Virus record (IMG/VR): IMGVR_UViG_2627853910_000005 | Reading direction: 5' to 3' (one strand) | DNA from: a virus | Lineage: Duplodnaviria > Heunggongvirae > Uroviricota > Caudoviricetes | DNA: 39,175 bases | Part shown: in pieces, positions 21,045-23,165 of the stretch | Layout of the letters: the number at the start of each line of letters is the position of its first letter | Numbering within the stretch: the stretch's first letter is position 1 | The notes under the pieces: model-generated | Database searches by the model: none | Seen by the model: the letters and a program-made list of their open reading frames with translations, nothing else | Told to the model about the DNA's origin: nothing | Program-made: the position numbers and the translations under genes

Positions 21045-21542
21045 CTACATCTGATATTTTTTATCTCTTAAAGATTCATAAATCCGTTGACAAGTCACTC
21101 CTGCGATGTAGCGTTTGTCAGCAATTTCAGCATAAAGCTGAGCTTCTGCTGCAATATCTCCGAGCATGTTGGTGAGCATTCCTTCGGCGGCTTTGGTTGT
21201 TTTGCCTCTGACGGCAGCGGCAAGATTTGCGGTATGCTGCGCTGCGTCAAGGCGTATGGCATATTTTGTTGCTTCGGCACGCAGCTGGTTAACACTATCA
21301 GACAGATCAGCAGCCCTGGCAGAAATTTCAGCGGCTTTCTGTTGTGCATCTTTAACAGCCTCATCACGGGATATACTTCGCCCCTGTTCAATTATTCGAG
21401 CAGCAAATTGGACATTTACCTCTTGAGATAATTCGGCAGCATCACGCTCCGCCCATTTTTTTTGCCATCCTCTGTCGCTCCAGACATTACCTACGACAAA
21501 TCCTACCAACACGAGCAAAATCACCGTGAATATCTGATTCAC
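21045..21542 (-). CDS. i-spanin (Rz-like)
   Basis: 165 aa with an N-terminal TM helix ([15 protein letters not shown]) and coiled-coil periplasmic domain. GTG start overlaps the endolysin stop. Confidence 0.75.
21095..21349 (-). CDS. o-spanin (Rz1-like lipoprotein) embedded in the +1 frame of Rz
   Basis: Lipobox LIVLTSC followed by a proline-rich segment ([17 protein letters not shown]). Fully nested inside the Rz gene. Confidence 0.55.
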
Positions 21543-22072
21543 TGTTCTATCCCCCAGCAGGTTAATGCACTCTCCTGGTCACGACGAATAACCTGACCGT
21601 AACAATTATTTGAACGAATGCGGCAATCACGTCCACCGTCCTTTATCCACCAGCGAATCGCCTCGCATGCGCCTTTACGATCACCGGCATTAAGCCGCTT
21701 ATAAAACGTCGACGGAAAACACTTACCAGGGCCAATGTTATAGGGACAGAATGACGCGATACCGGCTTTCTGTGGCTCGGTCAGTGGAACTTTTATATTG
21801 CGCTCCACCCATGCCAGCGCCTTATCCCGCTCAATGGCGTTAACCTGGGCGCATTTTTCCTTCGACAGTTTCATTCCCGGAATAACAGGTTTACCGTCCA
21901 CCATCGTTGCTCCCCGACAGATGGTCCATATGCCGGAGCCATCGCGGTATGCAGTGGTGTGATTCCCCTCTTTTTCATCCAGAAACTGATCGAGAATGTC
22001 AGGGGCAGGAGCACTGGCGGCAATCAGTGCCAGAACAGCAGCCGACAGGCTGTATCTGATTTTTACGTTCAT
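21539..22072 (-). CDS. SAR endolysin (phage lysozyme, T4-lysozyme-like fold)
   Basis: 177 aa. N-terminal signal-anchor-release segment ([18 protein letters not shown]) followed by a lysozyme catalytic region ([20 protein letters not shown]). Paired with a pinholin upstream, as in phage 21. Confidence 0.85.
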
Positions 22073-22185
22073 GGATATTTATCAGGATTTATCGGCTTCA
22101 AATCCCCGGATATGTTAAATCTTACCTCACCAGTGATGGGCACTGGCGGGAGGAGGATGTCAATCTGATAAACACAGAGGTGACT

Positions 22186-22446
22186 ATGGATTACACAAAT
22201 CTACCAAAACAAACTTTTGCTGATTTAATCGCACTCAGGCAAGCAGTCGTAGCTCTAATCAACTTGTTGCCGGAGAAGGAAAAGGAATTAGTTAAAGCGC
22301 TTCTTAACAGAACTGCCGCCGATTTTTCATCATATCCACTGACAGATGACCTTGCGGACCTTCCTGAATTAATTGCAGCGTCCGCCATTAAGCTTACTGA
22401 AGAGATTTACCCTCCTCAAAAATCTTCACAAAATTCCTGCGAGTAA
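22186..22446 (+). CDS. Hypothetical protein (86 aa) antisense within the lysis cassette
   Basis: ATG at 22186 with GAGG 5 nt upstream. Convergent with, and overlapping the 3' end of, the DUF1327-like gene. No domain recognised. Confidence 0.3.
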   Translation: MDYTNLPKQTFADLIALRQAVVALINLLPEKEKELVKALLNRTAADFSSYPLTDDLADLPELIAASAIKLTEEIYPPQKSSQNSCE

Positions 22447-22945
22447 CTTCAATGCAATAATCGTAAAACGCCGCAAACTGCTCATCGCGGCGTTTTTTTT
22501 CATCTTCAGAAGGGATCAGCACCGACAATTTTTTATTCAGATCAGCGACGCTGCCCTCCAGTTTTTCAATGGGCGATTCAATATCATCTTTTTCTGACCG
22601 CAATGCCGTCGGTGGCGTCTTCAGAGAACCAGTAATTCTTCCCGGTAGCTTTCCTTTGTAGGTTATCCACACATTCTGCGCCTCTAAAATTATGGGGCGC
22701 TTTTCCGGCGACTGCTCATCCCCTACACATAACCCGGCAGCAACATCCAGGAATACCTGTCTGATTCTCATTCTGGCTGCTGCCTCATAAAACTCCAGCG
22801 CGGCACCTTCAACACGGTCCAGCGAGATGTCCAGGTCAAAAATTTCACCGTCAAAGCGTTTTTTGTCCCGTAAGGCTACAGTTACCGCCACTTTATTCTC
22901 AAAATTGCGGACTCCTTTCACAACCAGTTCATAGTCTTGTGTCAT
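22394..22945 (-). CDS. DUF1327 (YdfR-like) family protein with extended C-terminus
   Basis: The N-terminal ~80 aa (MTQDYELVVKGVRNFENKVAVTVALRDKKRFDGEIFDLD...) resemble my recollection of Qin YdfR; the C-terminal ~100 aa are extra. Sits between holin and endolysin. Confidence 0.5.
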   Translation of the reverse strand: MTQDYELVVKGVRNFENKVAVTVALRDKKRFDGEIFDLDISLDRVEGAALEFYEAAARMRIRQVFLDVAAGLCVGDEQSPEKRPIILEAQNVWITYKGKLPGRITGSLKTPPTALRSEKDDIESPIEKLEGSVADLNKKLSVLIPSEDEKKRRDEQFAAFYDYCIEVTRRNFVKIFEEGKSLQ

Positions 22946-22949
22946 TGGA

Positions 22950-23165
22950 TTACTCTCTTCTCGCAACCTTACGCCTGTCTTCTTTAATCTTGAAATAAAG
23001 GTTTGTCAGATACGTCAGCAGGCCAAAAACCAGACTACCCAGCACACCGATTGCAGCCCACTGTGACGGAGTTACTTTATCGAGTAACTGCAATGCCCAG
23101 AAACCAGCATTACCAGCCGATGTGCCATAGGCGATACCTGTTGTTAACTTATCCATTGATTTCAT
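22950..23165 (-). CDS. Class II holin (phage 21 S-type pinholin)
   Basis: 71 aa; [66 protein letters not shown] closely resembles S21. Two TM helices and a charged C-terminus. Confidence 0.85.

Follow-up and report, generated by a model that had tools for sequence, protein, structure and literature searches.

Which elements separate the holin and endolysin genes in the lysis region of IMGVR_UViG_2627853910_000005, a 39,175-nucleotide stretch of DNA from a virus of the class Caudoviricetes (“the window” in what follows), and are they foreign to the lysis operon? An initial annotation of positions 21,045 to 23,165 had described a cassette of the phage 21 kind, consisting of an S21-like holin and an endolysin with an N-terminal signal-anchor-release (SAR) domain, and had regarded a DUF1327-like gene and an opposite-strand open reading frame (ORF) between the two as insertions that could be cargo. 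The gene content was borne out: a DUF1327 gene of 183 codons (22394-22945, minus strand) and an 86-codon ORF on the plus strand (22186-22446, hereafter ORF86) do lie between holin and endolysin, and the gap from the stop of the former to the endolysin start (22073-22393) measures 321 bp. The DUF1327 gene, however, is ydfR, a standard component of Qin-type cassettes. About 80% of complete E. coli genomes have it, and it is not a peculiarity of the window; the variable part is instead a defined 486-bp unit. Taken as a whole, we read the region as a late lysis operon of the Qin/2H10 type that carries ydfR as an accessory gene together with a mobile, moron-like module composed of the C-terminal tail of YdfR (here called C1) and ORF86, and we assign this reading a probability of roughly 60%.

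The lysis cassette as such is already known and widely annotated, namely in the Qin prophage of K-12, in phage 2H10 and in thousands of E. coli genomes. Over their full extent, positions 20900-23300 of the window share 99.5% identity with Escherichia phage 2H10 (Glaedevirus), and identity to PhiR63_1 is 99.4%. The K-12 Qin prophage has the same gene order and families (essQ-ydfR-rrrQ-rzpQ/rzoQ), and the flanks are shared with Qin and 2H10 as well, with the Q antiterminator, cspB/cspF and ynfU upstream and cspI, ynfN and gnsB downstream; the order S-YdfR-R is also that of the Stx phages. In contrast to the window, K-12 Qin encodes a YdfR of only 103 residues, whose stop codon overlaps the rrrQ start, and is devoid of the C1 tail, of ORF86 and of a conserved block next to the endolysin start. 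The likeness to phage 21 and DLP12 covers the PF04971 holin, a lysozyme family with an E-D-T triad and a SAR-like N-terminus, and the spanin arrangement. In DLP12, however, essD overlaps rrrD by 1 nt, with neither ydfR nor an opposite-strand gene present, and in phage 21 S and R are likewise contiguous. The ydfR companion of the holin is therefore not universal, since in DLP12-type cassettes essD directly abuts rrrD. With such tight, insert-free S-R cassettes in DLP12-type prophages, the description of the cassette as interrupted relative to phage 21 and DLP12 was correct; its gene content is not universal, and the plus-strand ORF is conserved.

The extent of the insert, which the initial annotation had left to a comparison with related regions, could be defined by pairwise blastn. 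Against Stx2a_WGPS2, whose cassette type has the order S-YdfR114-R, the window differs by a clean indel at 22124-22609, a segment of 486 bp in the place of which Stx2a_WGPS2 has 8 bp. Against K-12 Qin the break is wider (22083-22739) and the differing part is replaced by a short ydfR 3' end. In locus L002, 22117-22608 is exchanged for 307 bp with an unrelated plus-strand ORF of 90 residues (phrog_2411), and in Stx2-86, 22149-22586 is exchanged for 822 bp with another tail and an unrelated plus-strand ORF (phrog_1853). The 486-bp segment contains the C1 tail (ydfR codons 113-183), ORF86 and a 62-nt leader of ORF86, and its GC content is 43.8%, compared to 49-51% in the flanks. Like a moron, it separates genes that are direct neighbours in related phages lacking it. 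The description as an insertion into the lysis operon thus fits 22124-22609, which may be either a gain here or a loss elsewhere, and not the DUF1327 gene as a whole.

The same S-R slot is filled by other cargo elsewhere: an ORF of 90 residues in L002 (4279-4551, plus strand, phrog_2411) and one of 104 residues in L005 (2629-2943, plus strand, phrog_1853). A common family of these two with ORF86 was not supported, as BLASTP returned nothing and hhalign gave E values of 0.16 and 0.61. Around 22124-22609, only an imperfect similarity of about 10 nt (CCAGTGATGG / CCGTCGGTGG) was found, which is not convincing as direct repeats or a target-site duplication. We also considered whether a C-terminal domain of the 296-residue type of YdfR had decayed and left the gap and ORF86 as its antisense shadow; tblastn with P0068, P0107 and P0046 gave no similarity past codon ~176, and the idea was rejected.

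The mobility of the unit is indicated by distant homologues of ORF86. An exhaustive HMMER search and a profile search recovered homologues of 89-93 residues at 38-50% identity, in which hydrophobic and charged positions are conserved, and this conservation spans about 69 codons that overlap no other gene. That such distant relatives keep both length and pattern is, in our view, the decisive evidence that ORF86 is a real gene as judged from sequence. Four contexts of the distant homologues were read. In Salmonella prophages the ORF86 homologue follows Rz in a cassette made of holin_3_7/holin_8, a GH19 endolysin and Rz, and its partner is a stand-alone C1-like gene of 73 residues, whose ATG overlaps the Rz stop and which converges with the homologue (ORF93). 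In the second context (L229/L230) the convergent partner is a DUF1327 protein of 243 residues. The partner in the third (L228/L231) is a protein of 144 residues near a Q gene; in L228 the pair adjoins Q and stands outside any recognisable lysis cassette. In the fourth (L061) the homologue is located between S and R.

In every context read, the partner on the late strand has a C1-like tail at its end (consensus ..KRRDEN.AA.Y....K.LQELK..QQ*), and the ORF86-like and C1-like genes overlap by 53-59 nt; therefore, the conserved unit is the pair. Since this pair is kept at other positions and with other N-terminal partners, we regard it as a mobile cassette of two genes that resembles a moron. In the window, YdfR is the in-frame fusion partner of its late-strand half, and ORF86 converges on ydfR with an overlap of 53 nt with the ydfR 3' end. 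Beyond E. coli, a scan of species-representative genomes yielded no relatives of ORF86, and a scan of IMG/VR found near-identical copies only. The Salmonella example (L224 4438-6242, Salmonella enterica DBLAZG010000016.1) has the pair after Rz in a cassette of Phage_holin_8, Phage_holin_3_7, Glyco_hydro_19 and a DUF2514 Rz; its 73-residue C1-like gene was overlooked by the gene caller and yet translates intact. C1/ORF86 is thus a conserved convergent pair, equipped with promoter-like and terminator-like signals, and is shared by Salmonella prophages whose lysis system differs.

What are these signals? Upstream of ORF86 lies a conserved block, ATGGATATTTATCAGGATTTATC (22073-22123, plus strand), with a candidate -35 hexamer TTTATC (22088-22093), a 17-nt spacer and a candidate -10 hexamer TATGTT (22111-22116). 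The pattern ATGGATATTTATCAGGNTTTATC-N17-TAT(G/T)(T/G)T stands 62-87 nt upstream of a plus-strand start codon in 13 of 13 contexts, among them loci without an adjacent R and loci upstream of the unrelated phrog_2411 and phrog_1853. Because the two hexamers are conserved and remain 17 nt apart although the sequence of the spacer differs between contexts, the block is promoter-like, and we propose it as a promoter or regulatory site of the plus-strand cargo ORF. A mini-ORF of 15 codons, ATGGATATT...TAA (22071-22118, plus strand), is found in the same place, its ATG sharing two bases with the R start codon; the Salmonella copy has 15 codons as well, others are longer, and the peptide is not conserved, so it is probably a coincidence.

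ORF86 itself matches phrog_2572 over its full length (1-86 of 86, E 1e-53) and has a good Shine-Dalgarno (SD) sequence, GAGGTG, whereas R has none. Starting 19 nt after its stop codon, within the C1 coding sequence, there is a hairpin (22465-22500, plus strand, inverted repeat I4) with a 10-bp stem (AAAACGCCGC/GCGGCGTTTT) and a 12-nt loop, followed by a T run (U8 in the transcript). Its fold has an energy of -14.6 kcal/mol (z -2.9), it is kept in three further loci (L004, L058, L061) although the amino acids on the opposite strand change, and the G-U changes in it correspond to A-C mismatches on the other strand. The hairpin may thus be a terminator for the plus-strand transcript. With its loop longer than 8 nt, it escaped a consensus terminator scan, and a 12-nt loop is indeed atypical.

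The concept of lambdoid morons, with bor (convergent with Rz) as an example, goes back to Hendrix and Juhala. ORF86 resembles them in being small, in opposing the late operon between genes that are adjacent in relatives, and in having its own SD sequence and a lower GC content, as well as a terminator-like hairpin and a conserved upstream block. In Stx2-86, bor takes an analogous convergent position against Rz. Together, the block, the SD sequence and the hairpin with its U-tract suggest the anatomy of a moron, with putative promoter and terminator activity. The difference from classical morons is that ORF86 is always coupled to a late-strand C1 partner through the 53-59-nt overlap.

The gene on the other side of this overlap, ydfR, matches PF07041 (E 1.8e-41, 140.7 bits, cutoff 25) and phrog_2091 over positions 1-183 of 183 when translated from its ATG, and its RefSeq homologues are named “YdfR family protein”. 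The family is modular, with total lengths of 103, 114-116, 169-211 and 268-296 residues. In the window the protein is composed of a conserved N core (codons 1-72, 22730-22945), a middle module that occurs in most members and is absent from K-12 (codons 73-112, 22610-22729), and the C1 tail (codons 113-183 and the stop, 22394-22609), which is one of several alternative C-terminal tails; all three are encoded on the minus strand. Identity to K-12 YdfR is 82%, limited to residues 1-73. An AlphaFold2 (AF2) model predicts a β-β-β-α fold at residues 5-73 (predicted local distance difference test, pLDDT, 65-84), disorder at 71-132 and a helical hairpin at 125-182 (pLDDT ~55).

The ydfR start lies 4 nt past the holin stop, and this spacing behind S21-type holin genes was constant across about 200 surveyed loci, a rough survey with a sampling biased by the way the loci were fetched; it also revealed many pairings of YdfR length with plus-strand ORF type. 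Matches to the holin gene were found at 14,944 places in 4,802 of the 5,426 complete E. coli genomes, and matches to the ydfR N-terminal core at 8,504 places in 4,342 (~80%). Judged by these numbers, most S21-type holin genes are followed by ydfR, which is among the commonest prophage genes of E. coli and constantly tied to a pinholin gene; a lead to RNase E makes its role testable.

Several phages encode modulators of RNase E or the degradosome, such as gp0.7 of T7, Srd of T4 and Dip of phiKZ. If the result obtained for K-12 YdfR transfers to the window, YdfR would resemble them as a phage-borne RNase E binder; it differs from them in that no relation in sequence or fold was found and that the catalytic N-terminal half is the reported target. 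K-12 YdfR was recovered with RNase G and RNase E baits, and its residues 1-72 suffice to bind the catalytic N-terminal half of RNase E in a bacterial adenylate cyclase two-hybrid assay and pull-downs (PMC13232886, 2026). In the same study Strep-YdfR co-purified Rne 1-598 and RNA, overproduction was not toxic, and the ydfR gene cluster was reported as cold-induced (PMC13232886). Because it is 82% identical over the reported interaction region, we read the 183-residue YdfR as a probable RNase E- or RNA-binding accessory factor. Such a role fits the neighbourhood, which is rich in cold-shock and RNA-chaperone genes. Our literature searches on ydfR and DUF1327 returned no functional study beyond this one.

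How could the parts work together? The cassette would be transcribed on the minus strand from a Q-dependent late promoter, and lysis would follow the phage 21 route, in which S acts as a pinholin that depolarises the membrane, R as a SAR lysozyme that is set free from the membrane and becomes active, and Rz/Rz1 as the agents of membrane fusion. S, R, Rz and Rz1 should be sufficient for this, because in DLP12-type cassettes S directly abuts R. ydfR, which begins 4 nt behind S and is read from the same late mRNA, would supply a protein with RNA and/or the catalytic half of RNase E as the most likely ligands of its β-β-β-α domain, as suggested by the one paper on a homologue. This protein would act as a late-phase accessory factor of RNA metabolism and not as a lysis protein. 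ORF86 would be made from the prophage, opposite to the late operon while that operon is silent; once the prophage is induced, Q-modified polymerase would cross ORF86 in antisense, turning it off while the C1-bearing partner is made. If ORF86 is expressed in lysogens, the locus would be a compact model of cargo genes mechanically tied to the switch between lysogeny and lysis.

Several observations weigh against this reading. The RNase E link stems from one study on the 103-residue K-12 protein, in which possible contaminant RNA binding was flagged and overproduction barely altered the transcriptome (PMC13232886). The hexamers of the block are weak, with 3 of 6 matches in the candidate -35, and a consensus promoter scan did not call it; moreover, the same block precedes R in cassettes without a plus-strand ORF (L006), and the block could therefore serve R. 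Covariation in the hairpin, assessed in seven sequences, amounts to one compensatory and two G-U changes and is not significant. Furthermore, in the lineage with a 176-residue YdfR (L102, L103, L113, L115, L122, L124, L127), which has a 7-residue deletion (GSVADLN) within C1, ORF86 has ACG in place of its ATG start codon, and another locus (L029) has a nonsense codon at Gln19. ORF86 may therefore be decaying or re-started in some prophages. The lost ATG, the nonsense allele and a ratio of nonsynonymous to synonymous polymorphism (pN/pS) only moderately below 1 indicate that selection on ORF86 is not strong everywhere.

A first alternative is that YdfR, and possibly C1/ORF86, regulate lysis itself, as a timer or safety catch of the pinholin/SAR-endolysin pathway. 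This idea draws on the invariable place of ydfR 4 nt behind the S21-type holin gene in the surveyed loci, on the Salmonella pair, which is again within or at the end of a lysis cassette, and on the hairpin, which from its position between S and R could block non-antiterminated read-through into R. On the other hand, tight S-R cassettes, those of the DLP12 type and that of phage 21, work without YdfR or ORF86, neither protein has a transmembrane or signal segment, and the L228 pair resides beside Q, outside a recognisable lysis cassette. A genetic screen tied ydfR to envelope integrity (cited in PMC13232886), but the reported partner of YdfR is the cytoplasmic RNase E, and overproduction of K-12 YdfR caused no growth or lysis phenotype (PMC13232886). 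We therefore consider a regulator of lysis possible but unlikely.

A bolder extension of the preferred Qin/2H10-type reading, which we put forward as a speculation with rather low odds, is that the S-R junction is a cargo slot with a conserved plus-strand promoter or operator block at the R start, into which at least three unrelated small helical proteins have been swapped (phrog_2572, phrog_2411, phrog_1853). The phrog_2572 protein and C1 would then form an undescribed convergent module of mutually antagonistic partners, with ORF86 made in the lysogen and C1 after Q antitermination, for example a lysogen-specific exclusion or regulatory factor that is neutralised on going lytic.

Could ORF86, on the contrary, be no functional gene at all, and the 321-bp gap a non-coding or decaying spacer in which the frame stays open by chance or through constraint on the other strand? 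ORF86 has no match in Pfam, NCBIfam or PADLOC and no structural neighbour, the consensus scan called no strong promoter, and the ACG start of the 176-residue lineage and the nonsense allele would agree with decay. The substitution pattern in E. coli (pN/pS of 0.35-0.6 relative to the ~93% clade; 9, 6 and 14 variable sites at the three codon positions) is weak evidence for the gene, as the antisense frame shares third positions and, according to a frame calculation on these counts, the third-position excess is equally compatible with that frame. What decides against a spacer are the distant homologues, which keep an ORF of 86-93 codons with conserved positions over the ~69 non-overlapping codons. 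In addition, the indels within E. coli are in-frame only, the SD sequence is good, and the frame is intact at 52 of the 54 E. coli loci found via the upstream sequence, one of the two exceptions being a contig end; at full length it occurs in 311 of the 5,426 complete E. coli genomes, where it is annotated as “hypothetical protein”. The predicted protein is acidic (pI 4.6) and AF2 proposes a compact three-helix model (pLDDT 73, from a very shallow alignment), whereas the 65-residue ORF antisense to it has no SD sequence and a composition typical of antisense translation. A non-functional frame is accordingly improbable.

Prophage cargo in the shape of a toxin-antitoxin-like, exclusion or anti-phage defence pair is a further reading of C1 and ORF86, but a very doubtful one. 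In its favour, the two genes are small and inherited together, overlap at their 3' ends and move jointly between phage backgrounds, their GC is below that of the flanks, and ORF86 is oriented like lysogen-expressed morons such as bor. The reading is opposed by the absence of PADLOC matches at E<=1 and of known toxin or antitoxin folds, by the acidic, helical nature of both proteins, which have no catalytic motif, and by the routine fusion of one partner to unrelated N-terminal domains in a late operon, which is unusual for a toxin-antitoxin pair.

Of the suggestion that the extra genes are cargo with a function of their own, there remains, then, a plausible case for ORF86 on account of its moron-like anatomy, with no defence, toxin or domain match behind it. 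Domain and structure searches of 22394-22945 and 22186-22446 assigned the families (PF07041 and phrog_2091; phrog_2572) and gave no informative functional match: for YdfR and ORF86 alike, Pfam, NCBIfam, PADLOC and structure searches contained no defence, toxin-antitoxin or structural match, the 183-residue YdfR had no PADLOC match at E<=1 either, and nothing informative was returned by PDB sequence searches. An ORF86 homologue of PhiR12_1 (L004 2612-2872, PV340549.1) bears the label “DUF1823”; this is the depositors' name, and a Pfam scan gave no match at E<=0.1.

The lysis genes themselves largely follow the description in the initial annotation. The holin gene (22950-23165, minus strand, 71 residues) matches PF04971, “Bacteriophage P21 holin S” (Phage_holin_2_1), over positions 1-63 of 64 (E 7.3e-34, 116 bits, cutoff 26), as well as phrog_9876 and phrog_20 (“holin”), and its RefSeq matches carry the names essQ/essD. 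The N-terminus MKSMDK contains the Met1/Met4 dual-start motif (MKSM), and the hydropathy profile predicts a weakly hydrophobic first transmembrane domain, a second one at residues 37-53 and a basic C-terminal tail, a topology read from the sequence alone. All features point to an S21-type, class II pinholin with a predicted antiholin/holin dual start.

The endolysin (21539-22072, minus strand, 177 residues, RrrQ-like) belongs to PF00959 (E 2.6e-24) and phrog_7 and displays the catalytic triad pattern E35-x8-D44-x5-T50. Its N-terminus at residues 8-27 is Ala/Ser-rich and weakly hydrophobic, with a maximum Kyte-Doolittle value over 17 residues, KD(17), of 1.75. Its PDB relatives are 3hde/3hdf (E ~4e-16 to 5e-16), which we take to be the P21 lysozyme (endolysin), and RrrD (4zpu). 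The sequence thus identifies a phage lysozyme of this family with a putative SAR segment. The gene has no recognisable SD sequence (..CTGATAAATATCC ATG, start region 22073-22094), and its start is 321 nt from the preceding late-strand stop in the window, whereas it is translationally coupled to ydfR in K-12; the efficiency of endolysin translation may differ from one cassette variant to another.

Downstream of the endolysin, the inner-membrane spanin of the Rz type (21045-21542, minus strand, 165 residues; DUF2514, PF10721, E 3.6e-38; phrog_312, “Rz-like spanin”) begins with a GTG that overlaps the R stop and has a predicted N-terminal transmembrane segment at residues 4-20. Embedded in it in another frame is an outer-membrane lipoprotein spanin of the Rz1 type (21095-21349, minus strand, 84 residues; phrog_11621, “Rz-like spanin”, E 3e-8) with a lipobox, LTSC, at residues 20-23. 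Rz and Rz1 thus have the hallmarks of a two-component spanin pair.

The late region around the cassette is unusually rich in RNA-binding cargo. An Rfam scan detected only the flanking cspA thermoregulator RNAs (RF01766, full length, 160 and 105 bits) at 23855-24294 and 20423-20839, both on the minus strand. Each of them lies in front of a cold-shock gene flanking the cassette, one cspB-like and the other cspI-like, and a third, cspF-like gene is located nearby (24434-24646, plus strand). Upstream of the holin gene, at 23617-23636 on the minus strand, there is a strong terminator-like hairpin, AAACCCGC..GCGGGTTT, with a T run. Between this hairpin and the holin gene, the late strand contains a promoter-like site, TTAATA-16-AATAAT (23290-23317, minus strand). 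Genomic SELEX (systematic evolution of ligands by exponential enrichment) in K-12 listed a constitutive sigma-70 promoter, TTTATA-16-AATAAT, between cspB and essQ (PMC3946193). Together, these two observations imply that the cassette may not depend on Q alone. Finally, in one E. coli genome (NZ_CP099721.1, 4070304-4074017) an IS3-family transposase interrupts a cassette that is 100% identical otherwise, and the lysozyme gene is annotated twice.

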